Part shown: positions 3,030 to 59,965 of the stretch, one piece after another
Numbering within the stretch: the first letter of the stretch is position 1
Layout: each line of letters opens with the position of its first letter
Origin: Tubulanus polymorphus
Taxonomy: Eukaryota > Animalia > Nemertea
DNA: 64,000 nt
Reading direction: 5' to 3'
Assembly: GCF_964204645.1 (NCBI RefSeq)
Contig: NC_134026.1
Span: forward strand, 19,718,467-19,782,466
Notes under the pieces: model-generated
Told to the model about the DNA's origin: nothing
The model's database searches: none
The model's input: the letters and a program-made list of their open reading frames with translations, nothing else
Translations under genes and position numbers: made by a program

Positions 3030-3245
3030 TATACGTGTGTGCGTGTGCGTGTATCTATGTATGTGTGTATGTATTTATGTATGTGTGTATGTATTTATGT
3101 ATGCGTGTATGTAGTTACCAAGTATTTATGTATATATTTATGTATGTGTGTATGTATGTATGTATTTACCAAGTATTTATGTATGTGTGTATGTATTTAT
3201 GTATGTATGTATGTGTATATATGTAGGCCTATGTATGTTTGTTTT
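3030..3245. repeat. Compound microsatellite (TGTATG/TATTTA)n
   Basis: Tandem TG/TA-rich units are visible directly. The ORFs 2985..3272 and 3014..3226 are translation artefacts of this repeat. Confidence 0.9.
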
Positions 3246-4166: not shown

Positions 4167-4291
4167 ACTAGCCATCGACCAAAACAGGCTTTCAACCTTT
4201 TGCGATTTTGACAAATAAAATCGTTTTCTGGCGCGATTTCGATAGAATTTACCGACTTAGGAACCTCTCGTGGTCGAGTAGTTTGTTAAGA

Positions 4292-4609
4292 ATGTCGTTA
4301 TTCGGAAAGAGGAAGGGCAAGAAGAAAGATTCGCCGCTTCAGGAACAACCGCCGTCTATGATGGACGGCGAATATGGCACCACACCCCAAAATCACCAGC
4401 AACAACAACAGCAACACGCTAATGGGTCTGCATCATCAGCAGCCGCGACAGGAGCAGCAGCAGAAGGCGACATGAACAAGGCAAGGCCAAAATTCCAGTT
4501 CCACTGCCAATTGGCGCAGGGCAGTCCGACCGGTATTATTAGCGGATTCACAAATGTTAAAGAACTCTATTTGAAGATTTCTGAATGTTACGGAATCGAT
4601 GTGAAAATG
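4292..4609 (+). CDS. GIPC1: GIPC (PDZ domain-containing GAIP-interacting protein) coding exon 1
   Basis: [12 protein letters not shown]…[44 protein letters not shown] aligns with the GIPC GH1 region. It contains a polyQ tract. Donor GTAAGC at 4610, phase 0. Confidence 0.85.
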
Positions 4610-7600
4610 GTAAGCATACTCCATGCCGATGAACAGGTTTACTTCCTTGTTTGTTTCTTGGAAAAATATGTATTTCTTTAATTTGATTCATTGACAAATA
4701 TAAATGGTGTAGTTGGCCTAATAATAGCCTATTCATTATCAATCATGTATTCATCCATTCCATGCAGTAAAAGTGGTAGAACTTTTGGTATGAACTGCCG
4801 TACTCTTTAAGCCTGTTTCCATAGACTGTTGATATGACTGCAAGTAGAAACCCTCTTGTCCGGATCAGTCTTCTTTCACTTTCAATGAAGCCTAATCTGG
4901 ACCATGAAAGTCTGATTCCATTGACTCTTATAGACTACTTTTACAATCCATTGTCTCCAGATGAGTCCAATTTCGTCCATTGATCCAGATATTACTCTCA
5001 GCCCACCTATAAGCCTAACTTAAATAAATGTGAAATAGTGTTAAACCTGATTGGCATTCAGGAATTTGCGTCTCAGGAAATTCACACGAAAAATCCTCAT
5101 TATCATACGTAGCCTAATACTAATAGCTCATTGCCAGTTGATTTCTATGTAGGCCTATTACAAGTTTGTTATTCTGTAGTAAACTCCAGGGTCCCTACAG
5201 GTCCTTGATTCCTTGTAAACCCCAATCTAAAAGAATATTTTTCAAGGTCCTTGTCGAATAGGCCTACCCTTTGATTTGAGTGAAGTGTCCAAAAGTCCTA
5301 GAAAACTCCTTGAATTTTGAGAATGGGAATTGGCAATCGGAAATTTAGGAAATTCACGCTGTAGGCAAACTTGTTCCTGTGTTAGTTTGTGTCTTTCACT
5401 GATTCTTTACTCAAAATCTTAGAAAAATATCCGGGTTCTTTCACTTGCGGGTTTGGATAGAATTTGGCATGCGGTTCTGTCATTTTCATAGAGCCTAACA
5501 AATACTTGGGAATTTCATATAGGACGATGGTTATTTCTGTACAAAATTATGTAGTTCATCCAAAGCTGATGGGTGCAACTCCCACCGCAACTGTTCTCGT
5601 GTAGACGAAGAAAAGAGCCAGGGAGTGGATTCGGGTGATTTTAGAGTAATGGGTGGCAGATTCAGGTGGTTCGAGTGCTAATGGGTTAATGAGGATTTCT
5701 CCTTTTCCTGAGCCCAGACAGTTACTGTAAAGTATAATGGTCCCGTTTGTCGACATCAGTTAACCGCCTATGTTACTGTACCATTTGGAAAATATGTGTT
5801 AACGTGAAAAATCGGTAGAATTGGTATTTTAATGTGAAAAAGCGTGAAGAAAACCATGTGCAAAATGTGGTGTGCGAACTATCTAGGGTTCATCAATCCT
5901 TGCTGCCACTGCCGGTCCAGTCTTCTGTGACACGAGGTCGTTTCATCCGATGAGTAGATATCCGAGAATCAATCATATTGAGCACTGTCTTCTGTGGCAG
6001 GGGTTCATTCATACCATGTGCGAAATCGAGTGTAATTTCATGAATCGGCCTTACGTGTCAGTTTTCATCAATTCAGCAGAAGCTGGTTTATAAAATGGGC
6101 CTTTTAGCTAACTACCATGGTAACAATGCTGATCAAAACCACGAAGCCTTTGTCATTGAAATTAAGTATTCATATTGATTATTACGAAAATTCGTAATAG
6201 TTTCTACCTAATTCGATTTGTTGATTCAGCTAGAATAACAATGTTTCATAAGCCTAATAATAGCTTCACCATCTCATTCAGCTTCACCCCCATGGTCCTT
6301 TCTGAATATTCTTCAGACTGTGGAGATAGCCTATGTTCTTCAAATCACGTTGTAAAAAAGAGTTGTATTGACAAAGTAAACAGATTGTTGGTTTCAATTG
6401 CCCTCAATCATGTGAAGCTATCCAACAAATAGGGTCTGAATTTCTGAAAATCATTCCATAAACACGGAGAACAGTGGCCGCGAGTTTTAGCATCAACTCA
6501 GATTTTCCGTGGCATGGAAACTTCGTGTTTGGTTTCTTGATGCTGTTTTGCCTGTCAAAACCGTACCTTAATCCAACTGAATGCAGCCCCTCGTACAATC
6601 AACAATTCATTTTGGAATAGATGACACTCATATACAACACATCAAGATGCTTGTGTATTAGATACATGTGTCTCGGCGCTACCGTCATAAGTTTGACGTG
6701 TGCGGATGTTTATTGATCGGTTAAATTTAGATCGAAATATAGCAATAAAAAGCAGTGACTATATATTGTTGGAGCGATTCAAGGTTCTAGACGTAGGTGC
6801 TTTGGGAATGGTTCCTCCGTCAGTCCTATCTGTGAGCTGGTAGACCTTTCTTCGTACTATCCACCTGTCGTTAAGGCCTGCGGTTTATCCTGGAGCAAGA
6901 TCTGAGGGTGTTGCCAAATATTTTTAAAGAGTAATTAATGAGAAAAGAAGCAGTGCCGTTTTGACCCATTAGGCCTGCGGGATTTCTAACAAAATTGTGC
7001 ATTTTTATAAAAAAATGCCCTTTTATGTTTTATTTCTTTTTCAACAAAATAATATTTTGCCCTTTTTGAAAAAAAACCCTTCAGTTCAATGGACACTCAA
7101 AATTTCGAGGGTCTTACTGAAGTCTTGTAAGCCTGCTTAGAGCTAGTGTCAGTCATAGATAGTGTTAGGCTAAATTAGAACGTTCAGTTCGTCAGGAGAT
7201 ACATGTATTTCATTTAGACAGGCGTGGCCACACGCAGTCTTGTGGGTCTCTTACGATATTCTCAGATACTGCTGCGAGTTTTTCTTTTTTACAAACTAAC
7301 TCAATGTCCTTCTGCACACGGATTCTTATTTAAACTTCGCTTTAGAAATCGATAGGATAAGGAAAAGATTTTCGCTTTTGAAAATGCTGTACAATGCAGA
7401 TGAGTATGAGCAACGTTTCACCTACTAGCCATCATCAGGCGTACTGATGAATTGTTGTATTTCTCACGTATATCTAACCCATCTACAAATTTTCAAGTTC
7501 GACCCCTTGATAACTAATATGCCTTTTCAGTTATGAAAAAATGCCATTGAATGTGTCACAAGACCTTCAAATGTAGGCAAGGATCAGCCCCTATTAGATA

Positions 7601-8170: not shown

Positions 8171-10479
8171 AATGTATGAGGATTTGTATTTCAGCCTCTT
8201 CCGAATAAATGCATTTTTACTGGCCTTGTTGATACCATTTAGGCCTATTAGCATTTATTGGTGAACGTTAGTCTTTAATGGAGTTCATCCATATAAAACT
8301 TTTTCGGCCATGTTTTTAAAGTCCCGGGCGAACTTCGGTTTTCGTAGCTAGTCGACTAGTGGTCGGAACTGATAACCGAAAGCACTGTATGATTATAATG
8401 ATAGTTCGTTCATAATGCATTTCACAAATGTTGACCATCTTGAACCTAGCATCGAACTACAGCAACTGTGGCATGCTCAATCATGGTCGGCTATTTTCGG
8501 ACCATAGTCTAGAGATAATAAGTTTTCTGATTTGAAATGGATTTCTGGTTTTTCGAATTTCCAACTTTTGACGCAATCGAATGAGACACTCTTGCTCTGG
8601 CATGAGCAGCCATCGGCCTTTGTTTCTTTGGGGGTTTCACCATTTTCAGGGTTTTGCCACTTATAACTAACTCTGTATAGTTCTGACCAACTGATTTTCG
8701 GTTTCATTTATTTCGACTGTATTTGACTAACTCTGATAACCGAAGTTGACCCAGTTCGTATGTGAATATTCTTCAAATTGAGTTTCTGTAGATACGTAAT
8801 CAAAATCAGTTGTGTACAAGGCACAGTGTGATCAGTTCGATTGTTAAAAAAATAATCTGAAACATGGCTTCGCACTCCTTGGGTTTCATTGCTGTAGCCA
8901 TTAGCCCCAACCCCCCCCTCCCGCCGTTCTCGCTATCTAGGGTTCAGGATTGCCTACGGCTAAAGCTCCTGCCAAACAAACCCTGGCTATGTCGAGAACG
9001 ACATGTGTTGGTTCTCTTATATGATTTGTTGATGTTCCTCTTAAATGATTGGTTGCTGTTTCGCGCCATGTGTACTATACTGTAACCTACACTGTACATA
9101 ATAAAGTTAGATGCTGTTTAGATTCACAAAATACAACATGCTCGTCGACTTTGCTCCTTCGGAACTGGTCAACTCTCTGTGGTGACAGTCACTCCATCAC
9201 AGGCTACAGTTTCTATAGCACGCCAAACCCCCAATTCCCCCACGTCTACTACAGAGAAGTGCTTTTTCTGATCCTTTATGATGCAGGCTATATGCAGGAA
9301 TAGATTTTTAAGGCGCATTTCCACATAGTAGAAAGTTTTGATTAATTCCAGACCCGTGATCTTGACTCTACCCGTTTTCTTGCTCTCAGCTTATATATCT
9401 GAATTGTCAATTCTGTAGTATTACGGAGTAGGTCAGCTGGCAGTGGTTTTTCAATTGGCTAGAGGTGTGATAAAGCCGATACACTATTCATGACGCGTAT
9501 GTAGATAACATGTCATTGCAGAAAGTGACAATGTTTGTCACCCTGTGCATCAAAAGGATGGACAAATCGTTATTTTTCCTAAATTCTCGATAACACATGT
9601 CTTGGCAGTTTTTATGCAACCATACAAGTAAATATGAACAAAAGTTCTCGTAATTCAAAATGAACATGTTCATTTCGGTCTCAAATTCAATAGGCCTCTA
9701 GCTGAGATGGAGCTCAGCTCTCAAGTTTATCGATTCTGCCAAATTGACTAGATGGGCATCTGACGAGATCATATTCGGTCTTAATAGTTACCACCTCTCC
9801 GCCTTCAAAAATAGAAATCTTAACACATAGTCAGTAGAGAATCTTAAGGCTTTTCTATAAGTGGTGCTCAGTCCTGAAGGTAATTTCAACCTTCCCCGTC
9901 ATTCACTACTTCATACTCATGAACTGCCTAAGAAACTAATAACCAAAACAGAATTGCTCCGGGAACACTTGAAGTCATGGTCCATAAGGTAGTCCTACTC
10001 TACGTGGTCCAGGTACAAATAATGAAATTCTGAACTCGATCCCCAGCCCCAGTTTTCCAATTGTCTTAATTTACCTAAGTGTACGGTTCGAAGCCCAGTA
10101 CTAAGATGATTCAAACTTTAAAGAATTTATTGAGGCCATACAATGAATATCTTTTTTGTAAACTTTGCTTTTTCCCTCATGCTTTCTGCGTTCTTCAATA
10201 GGCCTATATGGCAATTACATAGCCTATGCATTATCTATGCATTACTAAGCGTTATCAGACTATGAGGTTATGTTTAGACTTCGCTCTCTTAGTATAGATT
10301 TTCAAGTCATCGTTCAACCAAATAGCCAATATCGATAATATAAGTGTTTACAGTCGAATCACAAATTGATTTGTTGGGCAATGGCTTGGTGCATGAACTT
10401 GCTGCTATCGCATCATTCATCCGTTTTCTGTAGCGGCATTTGCGCAAGATTCCAGGCTTAGGATGTACCATACTAATAG

Positions 10480-11261: not shown

Positions 11262-12594
11262 CAAGAAAATTAATTTTAGAAAATTATTTGACGCCTGCGA
11301 AAAAAATGTATAATTTCTGGGCTAAGCTAATGTGGAATTGCAAATTTGAAATCGAAGTTTTAAGAAATTTGGGGAATGATGAGATTTGGCGATTGGGTAG
11401 ATGATACAGCGGGTCTTCGACTCTAGTAGTGGTTTAAATTTTTTATTGAAAATTCTCAATAATTGATCGCGAACTTGCGACCGACTTCATTTACTTATGC
11501 CTCTAAGCTGGTCTGCAAATTCATTGCCTCCGTGGTTGAAGAACGAGCTCTTCTGATGTCTGCTTCATCATGACTTCGAGCATATCGTGTGGCCTAGCCA
11601 GCCGGCCCTGGCCACCGGGGTTTGGCTGTCACTCGATATCCTAGAGTCTTGAGTCTGGGTGGGTTGAAGTAGACATTGTCATTTAAAATAACATGCTTAT
11701 GTTGTATGAATTACCCGTGTGTCATGAATGTTGTATTAATTTATTTTAAAATTTGTATTTATTGAATTTGGGAATTTTATCCCGAAATTTCAATGTAATA
11801 AGGATCAATAAAGAATTGAATTGAATTGTCACCTAATACACATGCCATCAGAGGACGCGGAGCCGTATATGAATGGTGTATTAATTTATTTTAAAATTTG
11901 TATTTATTGAATTTGGGAATTTTATCCCGAAATTTCAATGTAATAAGGATCAATAAAGAATTGAATTGAATTGTCACCTAATACACATGCCATCAGAGGA
12001 CGCGGAGCCGTATATGATAGCTATGCTATTATAAATTTCTAATCTCACGAAACCTGCATACTCCTTATATCAAACATATTTTCTGAAACGTTTGAATATT
12101 GAAATTATATGTTTACACATTTTCATATTGACCGCTCGTAGCCGCTGATAAAATTCACGCCGGCCCTACACACATCGTAGATAGCTTCGTCATTCCACCG
12201 GCATGCCCACGTCAGGGTCTGACTTTTATATCAGACTTCCAAATCGTGTATATATCCGCCATTTAACCGAATAATCCGATTTACTTATCATTTCTATTTA
12301 TGCCTGCCGCTTCTGATATAATCATACATCCTTTACTATTACAATACGTCTTCTAATGATATTCAATGCAATATAACATTTCGATGTTCAAATATAGGTC
12401 ATTATATAATCACAGGAAGCCATTCTACATCTATGTCAATAATATTTTGCCAGATAGCTTATTTGTGTACACATAGACCTGTGACGTTTTGCACATCGAT
12501 TTACGGCTGTCGTTTGTAAAATGACGCTGAATGGTTAACATTGTTTAGGTTTCATAATGGTAACGTTTTATAAGGCGTCAAAAAAATACTATTG
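11262..12594 (+). repeat. 1.3-kb dispersed repeat (copy A). It contains a 140-bp internal tandem duplication at 11735-11873 and 11876-12015.
   Basis: About 90% identical and collinear with 60784-62098 across >1 kb (e.g. …aattatttgacgcctgcgaaaaa…gctaatgtggaattgcaa…; …gaccgctcgtagccgctgataaaattcacgccggccctac…). Confidence 0.85.
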
Positions 12595-13176
12595 AAAAAC
12601 AGCTGCTTTCTAGCGAGCACCAAACATCCGAGGTCGACTGTGGGGGACTGGGGAGTACAGAAAATGTTACGAAATCTTGATGATGCCTTCGGGCACACAT
12701 TTTGTGAAATCCAAGAACCGCGGAATGTCAATGAAGATTAATCTGCTTGCAAACATGAATAAACCTCTGCATATTGGTATTTTAAGCCATGGATATGCCA
12801 CCTATAGAAAGATCGACATCTCAAAATCTAATGAACGCATTCAACCATTTTGTTGCCTCAGAGTGGCTTCTTACCTTGAATTCAAGGAAAAGTCAGGGAA
12901 TAATCTTTTGTTTAAAAAAGTCGAGGCATTTTGTGAAAAAGCTAAAAATCAGGGTAAAGTCACAGGGAGATTTCTTGCTAGATGGTGTGTGAAAAAGATT
13001 TCCAATTGATTGATTGTCTTAATTGATTGCATTCTTAGTAGATCAATTAGTCATGGAAAACGATTAACGTATCAGGGGAAAGCAAGTCAAATAAAAGTGG
13101 CCACCCTGTAAGAACTGTTATCGAGCTGCCTTGTGGCTATATTAATTAACATACATTTCTCTCTCGTTCATTGCAG

Positions 13177-13546
13177 ATATTGTTTTGCACGTTAAACACA
13201 CACAAAGTGGATATGAATAAGTTGCTCGGCGGTCAGATTGCATTGGACGATTTCATATTCGCGCATGTGAAAGGACAAGCGAAGGAGATCGAAGTGTCGA
13301 AGGCCGAGGACGCGCTTGGCCTGACGATCACGGACAACGGCGACGGGTACGCGTTCATCAAACGCATCAAGCCCGGCAGTATTATGGACAAGATCGATCT
13401 GATCTGCGAGGGCGATCACATCGAAAAAATAAACAACAAAGAGGTGAATAATTGCCGGCATTACACGGTGGCGAAAATGTTAAAGGATATCAAAAAGGGC
13501 GAAACATTCACTATTCGACTCGTCGAGCCGATGAAAAATTCACTGT
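13177..13546 (+). CDS. GIPC1: GIPC coding exon 2 (PDZ domain)
   Basis: Acceptor …cgttcattgcag. Encodes [123 protein letters not shown], nearly collinear with vertebrate GIPC1. Donor GTAAGT at 13547. Confidence 0.9.
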
Positions 13547-13564
13547 GTAAGTGTTTTTGAAAAT

Positions 13565-18289: not shown

Positions 18290-18640
18290 AGTCCTAAATC
18301 CCGGGGCCGGTTCCATAGTCGAGTGATCTTAAATCTTAAGACTGTTCTTTAAAGTTGTTAGATGGGCTATAGAACCGAGAAGGTCTGTCTTAGACTGGTC
18401 TTAAGTCTAAGCCATGACATCGGCACCAGTCCCTGAATCTTAAGACTAGTCCTAAGCCGTTAGGTTGGCTATAGAACTAAGAATGACGGTTGTAGATTGG
18501 TCTTAAGGCTGAGCCATGACTTTGGAACCAGCTACTGGGTCTTAAGACTAGTCTTAAGTTGTTAGATCGGCTATAGAACTAAGAATAATGGTCTTTGACT
18601 GGTCTAACCGCGCAACATGCCCCTGGGGTTATAAAATAGT
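18290..18640. repeat. Tandem satellite, three ~115-bp units (tcttaagactRgtc…ggctatagaac…ggtcttaaGtctaagccatgac…)
   Basis: Direct tandem repetition is visible. Related fragments occur at 39575-39700 and 41055-41165. Confidence 0.8.
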
Positions 18641-24427: not shown

Positions 24428-24685
24428 TACAGAGAAAATATACGAAAGGTTCAATGACCTTGAGACTCAAGAAAATCAAAAGTTCCAGAGTTTGGGAAAA
24501 TGAAGCAAAAAGCGCCCACGACATGCTAGGGGATGATGTAGCTAGAAAAGTTATTAAGTTAATAGGTGCCATACATTTGCGCTTAAATATAATTCAGAAT
24601 TCAAAATTTTGCACCAGGATTCAAAAAGTTTTGATATAAATCATATATCGAAAAACTAGGAGTTCAGTCATGTACATCGCATAAA

Positions 24686-26836
24686 CCAGGGAAGTGTGAT
24701 GAGATGGAATACGGACGCTATTGTGCAGCTCTTGTCGAATGTGCGTTGTAATTGCCCTAAAGCCGATAACGGTTCGTCGGCGAGCGCTTTGTTACGTAAT
24801 GCGCCGATAAGCGATAACCAGCGAGATCGGGAATCTCCGTAATAATTCAGTTGTTTCCGAATATCGGTTTTTCATCCCATAATAAACTTATATAAAAATT
24901 CCTCTGTAAACTGGTTAAACTCAACACCTGATTTCCCCTCATCAATTTTAGTCGATCAACTTGTATTCACAATTGTCTTAAATTTAAGTGCCCCCTAGTT
25001 TGTCTCTTAACTGCTTCTCTTTAATCTGTTTTAGCGTGTTACTGTTTCTACGTTAATTTTCCTTTAGTTAGTATCATCTCTGATTACTTGAATTAGTCTC
25101 TTTGTCTCTGGATTGTATATATCTCTCATAATTTCTGTAGTATTCATTATTTCTGAATATGACTATTAGGACATAGACGAAACGTTGAATAAACTACTAA
25201 CATTTTTGGACTTTTTCGTTATCATTGTGGGATTCTCTCTACATCGCTTCAGACGGATATAGGGTTTTATCAATCGTGATATCGGTTCTTTCCGCTGTAT
25301 TAAAATGGCAACGGTTGTCAACGAAATTATAAATGATGACGATTTTGATGATCTATTCTTTGATAGTGACGAATTGGTTCAGATCGATACGGAAATATTA
25401 CGGGAATCCTCTGGATCAGGATCAACTAATTCGGCCGATTCTAGTGAGTGTTATTCCTTTTGAATCAATGAAATATCGGAATAGTTTCCACCTAATTGCA
25501 GGCACTTTATTCTTTCCTTTTCTTTTTCATATAGGTACTTCTCAGGCTCAGCTGAGACTGCGATCTGAACACGAGAAAACACACATACAGGTATTTTTTA
25601 CATTTATTTTTATAATCAATACAATCCTTTTAGGTTATAAAATAATAAACGAATACAGAAAATAATATATAAACATAATATAAAAAATCCAGATAAGTAC
25701 ACGTTAAAATAATAATCATTATTATTATTTTCGCAGGAACACTATATATTTGGAAAAGGCTATGACTGAAGTGATTAACCATCGAGTATTTAAATTCAGT
25801 TCAAATGGAATGGCAGCAGTACATTATGGAAAATCGATCGATAAAATTTTGACTACAAATACGTCGCCGTCCAGACTTGGAATTAACCAGTGGTTTACAT
25901 GTCCATTGTTTTAATTTGATAGTCACAGGGACAGTTTTTTTAACGTTTTTGTTCTTACGCCATTTTTGTAATTTGACACGACACATATTACAGATATATA
26001 TCGGGTACTGTTCAGTATCATCATCAAAATCAATGTTGAACAACTCCTTCACATGGCTTTTGAAATTATTTTTATCGATAGGACGACGATCCGGAGGTTT
26101 CGCATTTTTTCCACACAATCGACAAAGATCCATGACTAAAAACAAGAAAAGGTTAATTAAATGAGATTGCTGATGCTATTTAGGCAACTTGGTTTATATG
26201 GGGGACAATAATTTGTAGGCCTAATGTAAGCGTTATCAAGTAACATTATTATGTAGTAAATACACATTTTAAAGATCATACTTCGTGTATATGTTTGTGT
26301 CGTAACATAGCAACATGACGTCAGAAACGAAAGCTGCGCGAGTCTGGGCCGAAATATTTGACATCTTCAAGGCCCAAATAACGCTAACCCGGAATCGGAA
26401 CGAACTGGCAAAAACATATGTTTAACACATAAAAACAGACTTTAATCACAATATAAATACTTAATGTTCCGATACCGGGTTTCGGAGATATAGAAGAATA
26501 AAAATACATACCTTTTTGGACAAATTTTACGAGAAATTGTTGAATTTCAACCGATTTTCTAAAGAAAAATATGTGTATACACAGCCACTTCCACGTTGTT
26601 CAATGAACTGCAGTGCGCATGCGTAGTATCGATCGCAGAACATTTATCGGGCTAAAACTATTGCGGGTTGTTCTGCGACCGAATCAAAGTTGATGTTGAC
26701 TGGTGTTCAGCTGGTAACACACACTCGATAAGCGTAGCTTACTGCTGTTGCGTTAACCTTTGATGTACGGGCTGAATTGAATAGCCTACATCTGGCAATT
26801 AAAAGCGTCCGTATTCCATCTCATCACACTTCCCTG
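24686..26836. mobile_element. DNA transposon (2151 bp) with perfect 33-bp TIRs CAGGGAAGTGTGATGAGATGGAATACGGACGCT and a 7-bp TSD CATAAAC (24679-24685 / 26837-26843). It is nested in intron 2 of the ERI3-like gene.
   Basis: The left end 24686-24718 equals the reverse complement of 26804-26836. Identical CATAAAC heptamers abut both ends. CAGGG termini are hAT-like. A 7/8-bp TSD is compatible with the P or hAT superfamilies. Confidence 0.65.
25801..26145 (-). CDS. ORF inside the TIR transposon, encoding a C4 treble-clef zinc-binding module (MDLCRLCG…x40…YICNMCRVKL). Possibly a transposon DNA-binding domain.
   Basis: 114-aa ORF. The Cys pairs are spaced C-x2-C…(40)…C-x2-C, resembling ZAD/THAP-like N-terminal zinc modules. 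No catalytic transposase domain was found, so the element is probably non-autonomous. Confidence 0.35.
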   Translation of the reverse strand: MFLVMDLCRLCGKNAKPPDRRPIDKNNFKSHVKELFNIDFDDDTEQYPIYICNMCRVKLQKWRKNKNVKKTVPVTIKLKQWTCKPLVNSKSGRRRICSQNFIDRFSIMYCCHSI

Positions 26837-27364
26837 CATAAACTAAGCGTCCAATGACACCATGCTTATCACTTGGTAAAATGCCGTTAATCAATGACTT
26901 TGATACTCATTACAATCAAAATTATATAGCTCTCAGAATTCAAGCCAAAAATTATCTTTTTGGGCACAAAAAAATGTTACAGGACGGCCATCTCGTGTCC
27001 GCCCGACCCAATTTCTCATAATGATAGGCCTTAAATCTAAAAGTTTCCCTTGAAAACCTCAAAAATGTCAAAAAATGGCTAACAACAATGGCTACCAGTC
27101 AGCCATCTTGACTTTGAGCGGGACAGTTTTTTGGCCGCAGATGTGTCTAGGGTAGACATGTACAAACCAAATAATCCATATCTGATTCTTCAAAACTTTC
27201 AAAAATAACTGGATATGTTGAATGGATGCACAGACCGATAGACAATAGAAAGTGAATGCAATAGCCTGCTTGCTGGGTCTGCCACCATGTAGTCTAACCC
27301 TTGTCTGGTAAATTCAGAATACCCAGTCACCTTTAGTGACTTGTATTCTGCATGTTTTACATAC

Positions 27365-30208: not shown

Positions 30209-30320
30209 GGGCCCAGTTTCACAAAAAGGTTTAACTCTTAAATCGATTTTTTAATTTCTTCATGAATTCAGTTTATCTTAAATCGATTAAGGCCTTAATC
30301 CTTTTCGTGAAACTGGGCCC
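30209..30320. mobile_element. MITE family A (~112 bp, perfect 21-bp TIR GGGCCCAGTTTCACAAAAAGG). It is inserted inside a family-H hairpin repeat, forming a composite element.
   Basis: The TIR is read directly. A second copy at 40731-40810 sits at the identical position of another H copy (both after AGTGCTGG). The H copy at 37925 lacks the insertion. Confidence 0.75.
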
Positions 30321-30684: not shown

Positions 30685-32694
30685 CTGAGGAAGAAAACAG
30701 AATTCACACCATCTCGATGGCAGACTCTGAAAATGCAAATCCATCAAATAATATTGTACCAGTACTCAATAATAATAACCTGCAGCAGCGGCAACAGGAT
30801 TTAGGCGTTGTCCGTTGCAGAAACAATTTGAACGAATGCGTCAATATAGAAGACGGTGCAGCTGAATCAAACCAAAATTCGGATGAAACGACGCACGACG
30901 AGACAAAGGAATCAACGAATAATAATTTCCAACAGATATCGACTGCGGAAACTGCGAACGATAATGCCTCGCTATCTTCTGACGACGGTTACAAGATACA
31001 AAATAATCACGCGATGGACGTCACGGACTACGCTAATTTCGTAAACGCGTTTCGATTCGAAAACGGTTCACCTGCGGGTGGTGGCGACGGTTCGGAGCGC
31101 GAGAAAGCCGACGCAGCCGTCGACCAAGCTCCGACGAATAAGATCGAAGCGGCGATTGGTATCGAAACCGAAGATCGGAACGATGATTTGCGTCCACTGA
31201 GCGATGCATCAGGCAAAATATCAAAAAATGAAATTAACGTTAACGCCGGCGCTTCGCCCGATCTTAGTTTAATCGAAACAATGGCGAGCATGTCCGTCGA
31301 GCTTGACCCGAAAAACGTCGCCTCTTCGGACGGCGCGCAGCGTGATGAAACTACCGAAGTAGCCGACGAGTGGGGTATGAATGATGTCGATAACGCTCAA
31401 TTGAATATAGATGGCGCAAGTACCGCGAATAAATCGGATAATATTCGCGACGATACGGAACGGTTAACCGATGTTAAAACGGAACCGCCGGTTTCAGCAG
31501 TGGCGTTCGACGGCACGGCTATCGCCACTGCCGAGGAGACATCGGTGAAAAAGAACATGGCCGAATTCAACGCAAACAACGTCGCAGCCGTAGGCTTCAT
31601 CAATACGAGTGACGTAGGCGTCGATGACGCCGAAATGGACGCGTATTTATCAGATTTGATGATTCCCGATAACGTTCCGTCTGCCCCACCCGCAACCGAG
31701 CACGCGACGACATCGCTCGCCAAGGAGATAACGAACACCGCGGAAGAACCGACCTCGGAGACTCGGTCACGACTAGTTGCTGAAAACGCCGCAGATGAGT
31801 CCGTCGATGCAGTCGCCTCTGAGGACATCAAATCAACGGAGGGTAACATTGGGAATCGCGGCGTCGACTCTCGTTTACCGCTGCAATCACCGTGCCCGTA
31901 TTCGTATCCGATCACTACTCCGATTGAGAGTCCGCCGCGACTCGCCTCACCGCAGAATAATTCGTCGGAAAAAGTGGAGTATCTCGACAGTAAAATCGAC
32001 CGAGCGGACGTTACGACTGCGACTTTTTCGCGATCGGATGATGACGCGTTCTTTCGAGGCGATCCTCGAAAAATCAACGAACTCGTCGACGTGATACGTA
32101 GCGATTCTCGAGAAGTACCGACCTGCATTCGGCCTAAAACGGCCGTTACCACAGTGACAGCCGCGACGCCCGTGCCGGCTGTATCATCGGTCGCAGCGGT
32201 GCGGATACCGCGGCCTAATAGTCTGCTTGGATTATCGAAACCGATTTTACCGAACGAAATGTCGTGTTTCGTGGAGAAGCGCGACAAAGACGGGGATGCA
32301 GCGTCCGGGGTTCGCGAAGATGTCGCGGACAGCTCGAGAACCGTCGTCTGCGTCAGAGATATTGACGATGATTCTATGCAGCCGGCACCGTCGTCGTTGT
32401 CCCCGTTGCGACCCCCCGGGTTAAGCCGGCCGGCCGCGCGGCCGAATTCGTTTCCGATGCCGTCGCCGACGAACAACAAACTAAAACGTCCGACGAGTTT
32501 GAATTTGATGCCGCGTGACTTCAATAGCGTTTCGGCGGCTTCCGGGAACGACGACGAATCGGGTGGCGCCGATTTATCTTCGGATCTATCTAATGATCAA
32601 ACTACTCCCCCGTCATCGCAACAATTACAGCAGCAGCAGCAGCAATCTGAATCGACCCCGGACGTAGAACCAACTCCTGATATCGATGTCATGG
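30685..32694 (+). CDS. ZFYVE9: SARA-like exon 2: a 2-kb exon encoding ~670 aa of Ser/Asp/Glu/Asn/Ala-rich, low-complexity, probably disordered sequence ending in a polyQ
   Basis: Acceptor ttacttatag at 30684 is phase-compatible with exon 1. The 661-aa ORF 30717..32702 is open. Donor GTGAGT at 32695, phase 1. Vertebrate ZFYVE9 likewise has a giant poorly conserved 5' exon. Confidence 0.85.
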
Positions 32695-33262
32695 GTGAGT
32701 AATGTATGAGTTTGAATAAGCGATGGATGCTGACCTTATTCGATTTCAAGAAAGGCAGAGGGCAAGTGGAAGTCAACGCCGCATGAGGCAATAGAATAGC
32801 TCTTAAAATGCACCACGATATGCCCCATGAGTCCGGGGTAGTATAAAATCTGCAAGTTTTTGAATGTCAATTTGCCCTGAAATTTCACGGGAAAATGAAA
32901 AATATTAGACCAATACCTAAAAAGGTTTGGATTTATGATAGTCCTCTGTATTTCTGAAAATGAGACTATTTTCCCAATTAGTTTACTTTCTGGGTGCCCA
33001 TTTAATTGTATTTTGGGGGTTCCCCCTCCCTGAGTCAGATTCCACCCCTGCCTGTGCACCTGTTTGTGCATGCATTATTCGAGAAGGGACTTGACTTAAA
33101 TGGCAGATATGATCATACTTCAAATCAGGAATTTTGTAGGCCTAAAAATCAACCTCAACTTGGTTCGGACTTATATGGCAGTTATTAGGGTTAAAAAGTA
33201 GCAGTATCCCGGTAAAATTTTAATACGGTACGTTCTAAACCGAGTGTTACGAACATTTTCAG

Positions 33263-33474: not shown

Positions 33475-33856
33475 GTAAATACCATCGGACAAAATATATG
33501 TTAGGGCGTGTAATCTATTTTCTTGCTAGTCGAATACTTGCAACCATGCTAGAGAAAAGCAAAGTTAACCCCTTGGTTTTTGAGCCCAGATGCCAAGCTG
33601 TAACAAAAATTGCCACGTTAATTAACCCCTCGTTATTAACCCCGGATGCCAAGCTATAACAAAAATTGCCATGATCGTCGAATTTTGGATAGTTTTTGAA
33701 AGTTGGCTGGCTGGCTATTGAAGGTTTTGGGGGTGTCTTTACGTCTGTGTCAAGTGAAAATCATGTGAAATAACATGTAATTGAAATCCTGGGAAAATGG
33801 AAACCGGAAACGATAGAAAACTTTGGGTTGAAAGTTTGTTGTTCTATTTTTTGTAG

Positions 33857-33959: not shown

Positions 33960-34559
33960 GTTCGTTGAATCACGTCCTCGATTATTGTAGTTGAAACCCT
34001 TCCAGCAACGAAGCTATTACGCCTTATATAGAGGTCTTGCATGAGACATCATAGGTTGTTTGCCAACCAGTGCTGGATATTTGACAAACATGAAACCATA
34101 CGATAATCAGGGGATTCGCGAACTTTCGTCTCGTAAATCGCTTATTGCGTTTGCCGCCTGATAATGGCGCCGGTGACGGCGAAAAAGCACATGGCTGCAA
34201 GACCTCTATAATGTTGCGTGTAACTTCACAGTGCTGTGTATAACGTATGTACTGCTTTATTGCGTGTAACCCGTGCTGCGGTGTATCGTTATTTCCTAAG
34301 ACTTCACAATCTTTGAACGACAGTGCTGTGGTCTTTTGATGAACTTGTTTGATATACTTATAGAAATCATCGGTACTGTTGGGAAGACGCAGTATATGGT
34401 GTGTACGTTATGCCCCGCACTGCAGGATGCAGGGGCCTGTTGCTCGAAAGTTAGAGTTTACCGGTGAATAGTTGACATAGTGATAATCAAAACTTCATTG
34501 TTACTGTTGTATTTATCCACCGGTTACCAACCTCTGAGCAATTGGCTCCAGTTGAAGAT

Positions 34560-35285
34560 GACTATGGTGGCTGATAAGGGCCATAGCGTAAAATTCCTGG
34601 TATGTTAATGAGGGCGCCAGAACGCCAAAACGAAAAAAAAATGTCCAATTTTCTCTGAAAGTTTGTTTTGGCGCGCCAAAACAAAGAAATTTCAATTTTG
34701 GCACCCCCGCCAAAACAACGAAAAACGTCCAATTTTCTCTGAAAGTTCGTTTTGGCGCGCCAAAACGGAAAATATTCCATTTTATATAATAAATATTCCA
34801 TTCCAAAACGAACTTTCAACCACGTAAAATAATTGTATATATACGTAAAATAATTGTATATATGCAAATTTATGCAAATTACACACAAGATCAACGCGCC
34901 AAATTGAAAAATAATTTTTACTGTGGTTGAATGCTTGTTTAACCGCGCCAAGATGGAATTTTCATTGTTTTGGCGTGCCAAAACCAACTTTCAGAGAAAT
35001 TTCAACAGTTTTCGTTGTTTTGGCGGGAGCGCCAAAACATAAGTTCGTTTTGGCGGGGGGCGCCAAAACGTAAGTTCATTTTGGCGGGGGCGCCAAAACG
35101 AACTTTCAGAGAAAATTGGACGTTTTTCGTTGTTTTGGCGGGGGCGCCAAAACGGAATTTTCTTTGTTTTGGCGCGCCAAAACAAACTTTCAGAGAAAAT
35201 TGGACGTTTTTTTTCGTTTTGGCGTTCTGGCGCCCTCATTAACATACCAGGAATTTTACGCTATGGCTTTATCAGCCACCATAGA
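34560..35285. mobile_element. Foldback-type element. The two long inverted arms (34565-34800 and 34965-35280) are built from 50-56-bp subrepeats (…cgccaaaacgaactttcagagaaaattggacgtttttcgttgttttggcg…). A 160-bp AT-rich spacer separates them.
   Basis: The outermost ~50 bp form a near-perfect inverted repeat (ggctgataagggccatagcgtaaaattcctggtatgttaatgagggcgcc / ggcgccctcattaacataccaggaattttacgctatggctttatcagcc). The ORFs 34513-35245 on both strands are artefacts of the repeat. Confidence 0.7.
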
Positions 35286-37089
35286 TGACTGATTGGTTCA
35301 AGAAAATATTGATTTCATTACGAATTGAATACCAAGCATGCATACTTTAGAAAATTTGGTCATTAGAGAAAAGAAAGCTCAGAAATTTTCGTGGCCACTT
35401 GCGTAGCTCGTCTGAAAAAAAATTGGCTAATTTGTCATGTATGATTTGGATTTATTAAAAGATGACTCGGACAATTTGGCTAGCGAAGACTCGCAACGTC
35501 AAGGTAATGAATCCGTTATCTCGGTTATGCCAGCATGATTGACGATTAATTAACAGATATTCATTGATTGATTCGTTAATTGATTTGATGAACTAATTAA
35601 ATAAAGATCTCGTCCATGATGATTGTGATGAAGATGATGATAACGACAACAATGTCGTTCGCAATACCGACAGGGTTCATACTTAATTGATTCCTTGAGA
35701 AATCCTCTAAATTGAAAAATTATTTTGAAACTCCTTTTTTTCGGATTTAAAACATTTTCATTAGTCCATGTCTTTCTGTCTACGCACCCAGTGCATAATA
35801 CAAATTACCCATTAACCGCAATCGCACAAGTGCTCTTTACCCGGGCCAAAAAGCTTTCGATCCCCCAAAGAAATCAGAAAATTAAGCTTAGTTTTGGTGT
35901 ATTTCAAAGCAATTATCAGCATTGATAGAATATTGACATCCACTCTGGTAGGGGCTGTAGATATTTTATAAGGGGTGGCTGATTTTCAGAGGGTTGTGGA
36001 TGTAAAAATGAAAGTGGTCGACACCCCTTTATAACCTATTGCGGAGAACACTAGTTATGGGGGTACGCCCCTCAAAATTTTTGTGACCTGAATCTGCGCC
36101 TGGATTGCATTTGATGTTAACAAGCGAGTGATATACCGGTACATGTGAACACACTCTGATTAAATAGATTTGCAAAGCTGGACCAAATTGTTGCAATTGC
36201 GGCATTTGTTTCCGGAAAATAGCACAGAGATATTATTTCAACATTCGCTTATGTTGATTAGTCCTGCTGATTGATTGTGCGATTTGTCCATTTTCTTAAC
36301 CGACCGTTGTGTACCTTTTCGGATTTCGATATTTTCTACATCCTAAAATTCTTGAATACCGATTCTGCAGTAGTAGTATGAACCCTGAATAATCGGAAAT
36401 CAAATTTCGAAAGAAGAGATAAACATATATCAGTGAAAAACGTCGATTTCTGATGAATACTTAGTTCTCAATCTTGTGCATGGTGGGAAACGGGGTCTCA
36501 GCATAATCAAATAGTATAATATCATTATCACTACTATAATTCTAATATTTCGACTGGAAGTCTATCAGAACATCGTATATTTTCATAGCATGAGGAAATT
36601 CTCTTGATTATATCGGCTTTAATAACGTAAAATAAGAAGACCCGCAATTTAATTTTCTTTTTTGGGGGGGGCAAAGGGATAATTTTGAAGTATTTATGGA
36701 AACCTACTACAACACTCACTAAACTAACATACCGCTATCTAGTAGGCTAATTGGATAAAATCATTGAAAATATTAAGAAAAAAAGGATCTTCATCATGAA
36801 ACTTCGTCGCTTCGATGCAGATTGTATTTCTTAAACTAAATATGAGGATAAGCGATGTATGCCCCCTAACCGAGAGTGGTGTCACGGACTTGTGGTGGCC
36901 ATCTTCCGTCAGCTGGGATTTGAACCACGCCGCATAGGTCGGGGATTTGAAAAATTTTACAACAAACCTGGAAAATGTTTTATTGATCACGTGTGTCTTA
37001 ATCGATACGTGATTCATGAAAGGAGGAATACATTGTAACATCTTAAAGCAAGAAATTCCTCGGATTTTGTTTTACAACAAGGGAATACT

Positions 37090-37205
37090 CAGGGCCCGGT
37101 TTTATAGACTAGTATTACCTTTAACCTGTAGGCTAACTTAGTTTATTTTCAATTGAGTTAACCCCCAGGTTAAAGGTAATACCAGTCTATAAAACCGGGC
37201 CCAGG
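37090..37205. mobile_element. MITE family B (full copy, near-perfect palindrome)
   Basis: CAGGGCCCGGTTTTATAGACTAGTATTACCTTTAACC…GGTTAAAGGTAATACCAGTCTATAAAACCGGGCCCAGG. Confidence 0.8.

Positions 37206-38696: not shown

Positions 38697-38780
<84 letters not shown>
38697..38780. repeat. (AT)n microsatellite in a SARA-like intron
   Basis: Read directly. The ORFs 38369..38791 and 38480..38854 run across it. Confidence 0.95.
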
Positions 38781-52545: not shown

Positions 52546-52599
52546 CCTAACCCTAACCCTCTCCTAATCCTTATCCTAGTTATAGTAATATTATTATTA

Positions 52600-52671
<72 letters not shown>
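52546..52671. repeat. Short degenerate (CCCTAA)n telomere-like block (52546-52576) abutting a long (ATT)n microsatellite (52588-52671)
   Basis: cctaaccctaaccctctcctaatcc…(att)27. Confidence 0.8.
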
Positions 52672-53326
52672 GTATATGCACAATGTTACCTACCTATTGT
52701 ATCAACCTTCCACTACACATGACACATGTGCTCATTCATCCAATTGTCATTGGTGATGTACGCAAGAAATGTACCCTACCCGACGAAAACTTTACCACTG
52801 CTTGTGTACATACAACATGCTAATTGCCCAAAGCTAATTTTTTAATTAGAATTTGTATAATTTGCCTCTTAAGTAATAGTACATTTGAATCAGATTTTTA
52901 TATTTTCTTGTCTCGGAAAAGGGAAGTTGGGTTTTGTTAATTTGTAAATTTAGGGCTTCTTAAGCCTTGAGGATGCTTAGGGTCGGAATATTTTTGGATT
53001 ACTTGATTTTACTACGATGTTAAGTGGAATTCATATCAATTCACATTCTAGACTCATCTCTATATTATGCTTGCAATGCTCCAAAAATCGGTTATCTATT
53101 GTTCCTTGGCTGATAATATGTTACAAAGTCATATAATATAATGAAAACCATTTAATTTGCTATGTGATTCACAGTATTTTGACCTACTTAAAAATTTTGA
53201 GATTAATATGATTTTATTACTGTACATGTCCCTATAACAGATAGTGGGTTGGATTTAGGATGTTCAGATGCCTTTGATTACCCTCGCTGCTTAATAGCTT
53301 CAAAGGTCATACATTGATTATAATTG

Positions 53327-57029: not shown

Positions 57030-57690
57030 AAGTTGAATAATACATGGCATTGAATAATACAATAACTTAGTATTTCTATATTATATTTGTATCTACGCAT
57101 ATTTTGTTACCACAATCGATTGCAAAGATGTAGCTCATGACATCGTCTATTTTTGTGGTGAGTTTCAAGGAAATTAGTTATTCTATATGGTCACCAGGGG
57201 GCGTTGAATAGTAGAATTACTTAGTATTTCCTTATTAGATTGGTACCTAGGGATATTTTGTTACCATGATCAATTGCAAAGTTGTAGTTCATGACATGAT
57301 CTACGATTGTGGTGAGTTTCAAGGTCATTGGGTTTTGCATATGGTCACCAGGGGGCGTTGAATAGTAGAATAACTTAGTATTTCCTTATTAGATTGGTAC
57401 CTAGGGATATTTTGTTACCATGATCTATTGCAAAGTTGTAGTTCATGACATGATCTACGATTGTGGTGAGTTTCAAGGTCATTGGGTTTTGCATATGGTC
57501 ACCAGGGGGCGTTGAATAGTAGAATAACTTAGTATTTCCATATCAAATTGGTAACGAGGCATATTTTGTTATCACAATCAATTACAAAATCATAGCTTCT
57601 GACATATTCTATGATTGTGGTGAGTTTCAAGGTCATTGGTTTTTGTATATGGTCACCAGGGGGCGTTGAATATTGAAATTGTTAGATTGT
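57030..57690. repeat. Minisatellite, about 4.5 tandem copies of a ~128-bp unit (…gttaccacaatcgattgcaaag…gtggtgagtttcaagg…tggtcaccagggggcgttgaatagtagaat…)
   Basis: Direct tandem repetition. A related fragment lies at 15560-15640. Confidence 0.85.
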
Positions 57691-58244: not shown

Positions 58245-59965
58245 TCATCGAAAACAGTAAAACGCCCTCTTAATCAGATCAAAAAACTGCGCTCTAAAGT
58301 ACGAACCAGCCAGACAATAGATGAAGAAATTCAAGGCATGGTTCGAGTGCTTCAGTAAAATGAAAATTCCAAAAAAATATAGGTGAACCGATAAAGGTGT
58401 GCATCATGTTGACTTGATAGGGTAATGTTGTACTGATGAAGACGATATTAACGGATAAAAGTAATCGGGTCAGGTTATCGTAACGTGAATCGTCATTTTT
58501 GCCCGTTTTGTTCATTAGTTTTGCCGCTGTACGAGATCGGTTTAATTGTACGATTATAATCGTATTACACGCGGTTATGATTAGAAAAGGCATTATTGTA
58601 TAGGTGGCCGCAGATATCCATAATCGATATTTGGTGGAGTATGTTCGCCAAGCAGCTGTTGGAGCACGACATTCATATCTATCCCGGATTAGTACCAAAC
58701 TGACGCTTCCAGCAAAAGCAGTGGAGTTGATGACACTGACGAATAGCAAAATTACTAAAAAGAGGAACATCGCCCTTCGAACAGTCCAGATAGTTTTGGC
58801 TTTCGTCGGTTGCACTACGCATATACATCTCTCAATCGTCAACAGGACAATAATCCACGACGAGGTTTGTTCGGCGAACCCAATCAAAAATGTCAGCGAA
58901 ATACACGACGCTTTTGACGCTGCTCGTATGTCGGGAGACAACTGTTGCGGCCAATAAGCCTTTTTACAGTTTCCAGGCGCCATTTTTTGGGGTACCCGCC
59001 GGGTCCGCATTGTTGAATTTTTTGTCCCTATTTTTCTCCGGTTTAATTTTTTTATTTCGTTCATATCTCTGGATTTGATTAAGATAGAAACAAAGTAAAA
59101 ATATCGATGAACTCGGCTGATAATAAACTTTTTTATGATATCACTCATTTATAAAGTTAATGCAACAATGTGCGCTGGTGAAGTTATAAACATTGATATC
59201 GTCTCTTGCAAATTAAATTGTTTTGGATGTATTTGTTTCAACACCGAGGGGCACCCTACTCACAGCTTTAAACCACGGAAAATGTCCTTATTTTTGGACC
59301 CCTCTCCCAATCATCTAAGATAGTCAAAAAAGTCGAAATAAGTCTTAGTGTCAGGCATTTAAGTTTCATTGATCTCCCGTCTATATTATATCGTTTCACA
59401 GTATATTGCATCAATGAAATATGGCCGTTGGCAGGTGATTCTGGAGCCAGTTGCTCAAAAGTTAACCATCAGAAATACCATGGTGTAATGGCGAGCACTC
59501 GGTCTTCAGTTAAATACCGGTACCCGATTTAAATTTTTGAATTTTCAGCAGCAACTCCACACAAATGGAGGCAGCCACGGCCGTGTCAAACTTGACGCTT
59601 GCAAACCGTTGGATCGGCTTGATAACGCGCAGGAATTTCCTCGCGAGTAACTCCAGATTTATGTCGAGCAGATCGAAGAAAGCTAGGAACATCATTAGAA
59701 TACCGGTTGAGGAAGTGCGATAGAATTTCGAAGTCGATAGAACGACAAGCGCCGAAACGTTGCCGATATTGCCCAGTATGATGATAGGTAACGCGCCGTA
59801 TTTGATGACGAAGAAGTAATTTCTGTAGAACGTGAATAAGACGGAAACTTGTGTTCCGTTGGACAATGACATCAGAATGAGATTGGAATGCAGGTTTATC
59901 CTGGTTAGAATTACTGGTAGAGAATTGGTGATATCATTGGTTGAAAACGCGCTTATATTCATCAT
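58245..59965 (-). pseudogene. Rhodopsin-like (class A) GPCR. It is probably a pseudogene, or affected by homopolymer indel errors. TM1-2, TM3-6 and TM7 lie in three different frames.
   Basis: ORF 59965-59510 gives an N-glycosylated N-terminus, TM1 (GNxxN-like …LGNIGNVSALVVL) and TM2 (LAFFDLL). ORF 59148-58294 gives the conserved ECL1 Cys, TM3 with an E/DRY-like IERC, TM4, TM5 (…IMPFLII…) and TM6 (FISTTLPY). TM7 with NPxxY-like HALNFFIYCLAGSYFRAQF lies in the +1 frame directly after a T7 run at ~58330. Confidence 0.55.

Follow-up and report, generated by a model that had tools for sequence, protein, structure and literature searches.

Near the middle of the 64-kb window, by which we mean the whole stretch of DNA that was analysed, lie two long sequence arms in inverted orientation. 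The question they raise is what kind of genetic object they form, and whether they arrived there by transposition. The features described below make it likely that they belong to a non-autonomous foldback-like cut-and-paste (class II) transposon lodged within an intron of a SARA/ZFYVE9-like gene. As a mobile element it is ordinary, of a foldback-like type that is already known.

Extent, fold and flanking duplication of the element

The element spans 34564–35282 (719 bp). It consists of two unequal arms around a short middle domain and is bordered on both sides by a copy of an 8-bp direct repeat. Its parts are, from left to right:

34556–34563, no strand: left copy of the target-site duplication (TSD), AGATGACT, from a systematic boundary scan
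34564–34664, plus strand: left arm, unique outer domain, beginning ATGGTGGCTGATAAGGGCCATAGCG (arm alignment and site layout)
34665–34766, plus strand: left-arm subrepeat array with 84-bp spacing (site layout)
34767–34966, no strand: middle domain, 200 bp, 27.5% GC, non-coding (repeat finders, TRF and composition)
34967–35183, minus strand: right-arm subrepeat array with six sites (TRF periods 31 and 84, layout and nhmmer matches to the unit)
35184–35282, minus strand: right arm, unique outer domain, mirroring 34564–34664 (arm alignment and site layout)
35283–35290, no strand: right copy of the TSD, AGATGACT, from the same scan

That an element with inverted arms lies at this place, as a preliminary description of the locus had proposed, was confirmed far beyond chance. 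When the left arm was aligned globally with the reverse-complemented right arm, the outer ~205 bp were ~96% identical, with six mismatches and two indels. A repeat finder returned a 61-nt terminal block of 100% complementarity (34580–34640 with 35207–35267) and a second arm block of 128 nt with 95% complementarity, which bears out the near-perfect inverted termini that had been described. Folded as single-stranded DNA, the hairpin has a minimum free energy of −296.7 kcal/mol, against −99 ± 5.6 kcal/mol for shuffled sequences (z = −35.5), and as RNA it reaches −441.9 kcal/mol (z = −35.1). The predicted stem is almost unbroken across ~205 bp, and the borders with the unrelated flanking sequence are sharp.

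The dimensions of the arms differ from those first given. They do form an inverted pair, but instead of two arms of ~230–280 bp we found a left arm of 203 bp (34564–34766) and a right arm of 316 bp (34967–35282). They are also not subrepeat arrays throughout. Each arm begins, from the tip ATGGTGGCTGATAAGGGCCATAGCGTAAAATTCCTGGTATGTTAATGA inward, with ~100 bp of unique sequence that has no subrepeats in it. The right outer domain departs from the left one by one indel and one mismatch near the tip and by one indel in an A-run.

The longest perfect direct repeat that flanks the element is 8 bp long: AGATGACT stands immediately before ATGGTGGC at the left edge and immediately after GCCACCAT at the right edge. 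Under a liberal sliding null of random point pairs 720 bp apart, with boundaries chosen on a 5 × 5 grid, flanking repeats of at least 8 bp occurred with a frequency of 6.5 × 10−4. Comparisons over 9 and 10 bp fail, and a 7-bp repeat is obtained only with asymmetric boundaries. Readings of the TSD as 6 bp (GATGAC) or 7 bp were superseded by the perfect 8-bp repeat found in the boundary scan. AGATGACT has AG at its start and CT at its end. By chance, these edges lengthen the inverted repeat by two bases, so that the maximal inverted repeat appears to run from 34562 to 35284. The same AG....CT form makes the length of the TSD ambiguous, from 4 to 8 bp, at the boundary itself. A perfect 8-bp flanking direct repeat is a signature of cut-and-paste insertion, and the preliminary description makes no mention of it. 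On entering the SARA/ZFYVE9-like intron, the element would have duplicated 8 bp of its target (AGATGACT), and the empty site before insertion is predicted to have read ...CCAGTTGA AGATGACT GATTGGTTC... (abridged, GTTGA AGATGACT GATTGG).

Repeat features located in the middle domain are:

34803–34818: inverted fragment of a unit
34822–34863: tandem repeat of 21 bp in two copies
near 34896 and near 34945: eroded half-sites

The middle domain further carries a 9-nt inverted repeat, TTCAACCAC/GTGGTTGAA. With its tandem, its short inverted repeat and its eroded unit fragments, it looks like the remnant of a rearrangement rather than a designed loop. The loop had been described as AT-rich and 160 bp long; the composition is right, but the length is 200 bp, relics and tandem included.

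The open reading frames (ORFs) that cross the element arise by accident of frame in the repeats. The longest, of 141 aa, runs through the left arm and had no homologues when used as a protein probe. No transposase ORF was found within the 64-kb window. A tRNA scan of the window gave no hit, and no Rfam family reached its gathering score anywhere in it. Permissive Rfam matches to the hairpin, all to bacterial sRNA and miRNA models, scored 15–28 bits against gathering scores of 48–440 and were discarded as noise.

Intronic position and neighbouring elements

The element lies inside an intron of the SARA/ZFYVE9-like gene, ~114 bp past the donor as measured from inferred splice sites. The exons identified in the window, which is of eukaryotic origin, are:

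4208–4681 and 13171–13560, plus strand: GIPC/kermit-like exons
30717–32702, plus strand: SARA-like N-terminal exon, 661 aa
33244–33504, plus strand: FYVE exon (Pfam FYVE, E-value of 3 × 10−13)
34300–34449 (approximate), plus strand: probable exon with the second half of the FYVE finger, and a donor-like AAA/GTTAGA at 34449/34450
about 38.5 kb, plus strand: SARA Smad-binding exon (PF11409, E-value of 1 × 10−18)
46.2–47.2 kb, plus strand: SARA_C exons

Since SARA exons are present on both sides, the element is intronic. With the peptide of 34300–34449 added to that of the first FYVE exon, the Pfam FYVE match rose from 50.1 to 62.7 bits and covered profile positions 2–61 of 67. A candidate first exon of the form ATG...CAAG/gtaatg at ~35437, which would have put the element in a promoter, was dropped because of the SARA exons on both flanks.

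The 661-aa exon had no homologue in a word-indexed search with 8000 candidates, which was probably swamped by poly-Q. Its exact sequence is not on record, and none of 1.84 billion representatives proved related to it in an exhaustive HMMER search. Either this region evolves extremely fast or the lineage is unsampled. The GIPC exons are 73–76% identical to those of molluscs, crustaceans, mites, insects and vertebrates alike.

Other features of the window were recorded alongside. An (AT)42 microsatellite (38697–38780) lies directly downstream of the SARA Smad-binding-domain exon, and other long microsatellites are (TAT)29 at 52589–52675 and (TGTA)n at 3050–3242. Parts of a rhodopsin-type GPCR occur in two adjacent minus-strand ORFs, 58294–59148 and 59510–59965 (PF00001, E-value of 1 × 10−15, with weak Srw/Srsx similarity), and represent either a two-exon gene or a disrupted gene. 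Tandem repeats with long units are found at 57046–57672 (154 bp × 4.1, 89%) and 11724–12017 (145 bp × 2.0, 99%), and further ones at 18357–18605 (102 bp × 2.4, 78%) and 33565–33671 (56 bp × 1.9). Some of the long-unit repeats may be parts of other transposons.

A second candidate transposon, with terminal inverted repeats (TIRs), lies 8 kb upstream:

24679–24686 and 26836–26843: TSD copies, a perfect 8-bp flanking repeat, GCATAAAC
24687–26835: TIR element, 2.1 kb

Its tips read CAGGGAAGTG..., and its 36-nt termini (CAGGGAAGTGTGATGAG...) are 97% complementary, with a hAT-like YARNG start. A minus-strand ORF within it (25801–26145) encodes a ZAD/zf-AD domain (PF07776, E-value of 2 × 10−7), and no transposase was recognised in the element. 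Possibly this is a transposon with a ZAD exon taken up from its host. As ZAD domains are essentially arthropod-specific, the domain suggests an arthropod host. The presence in the window of a second element with a perfect 8-bp TSD shows that transposons which duplicate 8 bp have been active in this genome.

We also observed two palindromic MITE-like elements of 111–112 bp, at 37092–37202 and 30209–30320, with GGGCCC(G/A)GTTT termini. Their arms are 85–88% complementary around short loops, and they are unrelated to the foldback-like element. One of them shares its SARA intron. No flanking direct repeat of at least 5 bp was found for this pair.

Palindromic sites in the subrepeats

Both arrays are built from palindromic sites, of which three full ones lie in the left arm and six in the right:

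34665–34682: left site A, an 18-nt perfect palindrome
34695–34716: left site B, 22 nt
34749–34766: left second site A, 84 bp after the first
34967–34984: right site A'
35017–35038, 35047–35069, 35078–35099 and 35132–35153: right B-type sites
35166–35183: right site A

The composite unit is 84 bp long and comprises site A (18 nt), a 12-nt spacer, site B (22–23 nt) and a 32-nt spacer; in the left array the spacers are accordingly 12 nt and then 32 nt. TRF reported periods of 84 and 31 bp. The spacing is 84 in both arms, and the 84-bp unit divides into 30/31 + 54 bp. Tandem repeats with a palindrome had thus been seen correctly, whereas the 50–56 bp given as their period corresponds to the larger sub-interval of the composite unit.

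Site A is the 18-bp perfect palindrome GTTTTGGCGCGCCAAAAC. It has three exact occurrences in the window and one more with a single mismatch, where 0.05 were expected, and all four are inside the element. Site B is a variant of 22–23 bp, GTTTTGGCG GGGG CGCCAAAAC, in which the site-A half-sites stand around a C5/G5 centre. The preliminary description had placed the palindrome in every unit. The 18-mer is real and confined to the element, but the majority of sites are of the B type.

Half-sites with the core TTTTGGC, which can be written as TTTTGGCG, number 20 in the element and are arranged palindromically. They read exactly GTTTTGGCG in 17 cases, and their mean pairwise identity is 0.96. The spacers are less well conserved, the paralogous 32-nt spacers being 72–88% identical in a hand count from the printed sequences. 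In addition, each outer domain holds an imperfect site, GGGCGCCAGAACGCCAAAAC, 49–68 nt from the tip (left copy, 34612–34631). It is followed by a spacer of 32–33 nt (...GTCCAATTTTCTCTGAAAGTT; 33 nt in the left copy), and the first full unit begins more than 100 nt from the tip.

As a side observation, site A (34665–35183 region) contains the 8-bp AscI site GGCGCGCC, which is present three times in the element, and every site has GGCGCC or a near variant of it. The observed/expected CpG ratio of the element is 1.54, that of the window 1.03. A window ratio of about 1.0 indicates that the genome is not CpG-depleted, and intact CpG-rich palindromes are consistent with a young insertion or with a non-methylating genome.

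By analogy with characterised transposons, the half-sites are most likely binding sites of a dimeric or multimeric transposase DNA-binding domain. A dimeric binder is implied as the half-sites always occur in inverted pairs. They are the best candidate recognition elements because no other part of the repeat is as conserved and because they come in inverted pairs, begin 50–68 nt from the tips and are periodic. A transposase whose gene lies elsewhere would recognise the ends of the element and mobilise it in trans. The GTTTTGGCG/CGCCAAAAC half-sites would offer it nine palindromic pairs, plus one imperfect pair per outer domain, at a period of 84 bp. So many sites would give end specificity and help synapsis of the two ends, and the unequal repeat numbers of the arms stem from expansion and contraction among the tandem units.

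Known systems, rival explanations and significance

We searched for relatives of the element at several levels. No second copy was found in the 64-kb window by exact and mismatch searches, word-7 BLAST or nhmmer with profiles built on the unit and on the outer domain; outside the element, the strongest match in the window had an E-value of 0.13. A pattern for the palindrome pair had no matches in metagenomes, and a pattern scan of viral contigs had none either. Literal strings of the palindrome, of the terminus and of the unit, and of the termini of neighbouring elements, were not found in the literature. The spacer–site junction, with 22 specified bases, had a single match in public collections, on a contig of a Mariprofundaceae metagenome-assembled genome that is held in both the metagenome and the genome sets (positions 8723–8745 of Ga0256829_1004045, which is JALUXZ010000188.1). 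This is ordinary bacterial sequence without the palindrome or the repeats, and we rejected it as a chance match.

In structure, the element combines long TIRs with tandem repeats, a short non-coding middle and a flanking TSD, all traits of the foldback-like class, whose members further form dispersed multi-copy families with variable arm lengths. As it is also non-coding and below ~800 bp, it resembles in size, coding and termini a MITE in the operational sense, a class in which near-identical members reach high copy numbers. The Foldback architecture that had been claimed for it is supported by the long TIRs, the tandem subrepeats, the short AT-rich middle without coding capacity, the unequal arms and the 8-bp TSD. 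There is no such support for placing it in the Foldback family proper, as the repeats stop short of the termini and the TSD, at 8 bp, is shorter than the mode of 9 bp.

The published foldback scheme consists of a TIR outer domain, tandem repeats and a middle domain (PMC4079207), and the layout of the element is the same, as it is for Tetris (PMC4079207). Tetris and DAIBAM of Drosophila virilis are likewise non-autonomous. Their TIRs comprise an outer domain of unique sequence, tandem repeats and an inner part, and their non-coding middle is variable. The TSDs of Tetris (8–9 bp) overlap the 8 bp found here. Its repeats, in contrast, are ~220 bp long and gave rise to a satellite, while the unit of the element has 84 bp. 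Tetris was placed in Mutator by TSD size only.

Galileo, of the P superfamily, offers a second parallel. Its two-TIR non-autonomous copies in Drosophila have long, repetitive, Foldback-like TIRs and may consist of the TIRs only, as here. Its arms hold unequal numbers of tandem repeats (PMC3573991), a trait that the element shares. The Galileo THAP domain footprints ~70 bp from the end and was shown experimentally to bind more sites within the TIR's tandem repeats (PMC3688188), and multiple sites have been argued to supply specificity in foldback-like elements generally (PMC3688188). The first half-site pair of the element lies at 50–68 nt, close to the position of the Galileo site, and both recur in the repeats. 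Galileo differs in its TSD of 7 bp, a length obtained here only with asymmetric boundaries, and in its TIRs of up to 1.2 kb with repeats of ~136–210 bp, against arms of 203 and 316 bp with 84-bp units. The palindromic GTTTTGGCG sites are also presumably unlike the short THAP core.

Foldback (FB) of D. melanogaster and Tm1 of Meloidogyne resemble the element in having composite, variable TIRs of short tandem repeats, MITE-like non-coding members and non-identical arms, which average 93% identity in Tm1. Their repeats (10–31 bp and 13–15 bp, respectively) occupy the TIR from a few bases behind the tip onward, however, whereas the outer ~100 bp of the element is unique and its units are 84 bp long with embedded palindromes. 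Short tandem repeats reaching almost to the tip, a trait of Foldback sensu stricto and Tm1, are absent from the element. The TSD of FB and Tm1 is mostly 9 bp, with a published range of 8–10 bp, so the 8 bp found here is in the range and not the mode. Autonomous relatives in this group encode a MuDR-like transposase.

The 8-bp TSD and the multiple subterminal motifs are shared with hAT-type MITEs. Subterminal transposase-binding motifs are known from hAT elements, such as the AAACGG repeats of Ac and the subterminal repeats of Hermes, and both P and hAT elements make 8-bp TSDs. Within the P superfamily the TSD is 7 bp in Galileo and 8 bp in P, and the perfect 8 bp of the element, which fits P, is a length shared with hAT. 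The TIRs of hAT elements, however, are short (about 10–25 bp) and usually start with YARNG, while those of the element exceed 200 bp. Its tip reads ATGGTGG, or TATGG where tip and TSD are taken to have one base in common, with T rather than R at position 3 compared with YARNG. The tips showed no significant similarity to the ends of hobo, Hermes, Ac and Tol2. In a weak test against the 31-bp P TIR, local alignment of the tip was no better than that of shuffles (p = 0.48). Mutator/Foldback, P/Galileo and hAT are all candidate superfamilies.

Several other origins were weighed against transposition. The structure could be an hpRNA or endo-siRNA locus, exapted or never a transposon, in which the stem in the SARA pre-mRNA intron would be diced to serve a host function. 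The extreme stability of the RNA hairpin would suit such a locus, and from its position in an intron on the gene strand the hairpin is expected to be transcribed. Production of hpRNA or siRNA by a near-perfect intronic stem of 205 bp is physically plausible, judging by the predicted fold. Against this, no Rfam family reaches its threshold, and the TSD and the combination of TIRs with subrepeats are explained by transposition and needless for an hpRNA gene. Any siRNAs from a transposon hairpin would moreover be a by-product and not an alternative origin. We consider an hpRNA origin unlikely. A palindrome made locally, by a template-switch inverted duplication that amplified a local minisatellite and was never mobile, would fit the single copy within the window, the unequal arms and the repeat relics of the middle domain. 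It would leave unaccounted for a perfect 8-bp direct repeat exactly at the boundaries of the inverted repeat, sharp borders against unrelated flanks from which the unit is absent, and unique outer domains that are typical of transposon ends, and it is quite improbable. Inverted duplications are also a recognised class of sequencing and assembly artefact, for example as foldback chimeras from long-read or MDA libraries. The two arms, however, are set apart by mismatches, by indels and by three entire repeat units, they were not copied from adjacent unique sequence, and the discrete ends carry a TSD. We regard an artefact as extremely unlikely.

The half-sites raise a different possibility, namely that the locus is a cis-regulatory or chromatin module, an E2F/DP-type cluster of TTTGGCGC inverted pairs with the role of an enhancer, a silencer or an origin-like sequence in the intron, its symmetry being incidental. 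We take the half-site TTTGGCGC to correspond to the textbook animal E2F consensus, TTTSSCGC; the inverted arrangement with a 6-bp offset presumably differs from the classical overlapping E2F palindrome. Within the 721 bp of the element fall 11 of the 15 TTTSSCGC matches and 19 of the 27 TTTGGCG matches in the window, and its CpG ratio is raised as given above. There is also a precedent, as PMC5950925, citing Henaff 2014, describes MITEs in Brassica that disperse E2F sites occupied in vivo. The match here is to a consensus only, though, and a regulatory module leaves the TSD and the TIR tips unexplained. A regulatory origin is therefore highly improbable, and E2F-type binding would at most be a secondary property of a transposon. 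The E2F-motif MITEs of Brassica and Arabidopsis are, like the element, small and non-autonomous with TIRs and E2F-type motifs, but they carry one or a few TTSSCGSSAA sites each, compared with 20 TTTTGGCG half-sites arranged as palindromes in an animal element.

A bolder version would keep the transposon and see in it an undescribed animal family that uses palindromic pairs of E2F-type half-sites (TTTGGCGC/G) as transposase-binding sites. This is a very unlikely proposal. If it were true, each insertion would be a cassette of about 20 E2F/DP-like sites in or near genes and could rewire cell-cycle regulation, making the family an animal counterpart of the Brassica E2F-MITEs. The DNA-binding domain of the transposase could then mimic, or derive from, an E2F-like winged helix. 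The E2F-like nature of the sites is the only feature able to raise the significance of the element.

For the foldback-like transposon that we favour, the main use lies in the repeat annotation of the host genome. Long hairpin elements are hotspots of ectopic recombination and inversions, as with Galileo, BuT5 and DAIBAM, and can yield siRNAs. This insertion, which we call recent, sits ~114 bp from the splice donor of an adaptor gene of the TGF-beta pathway. Once its autonomous partner is known, the regular, near-invariant palindromic array makes the element a clean candidate for defining the recognition sequence of its transposase.
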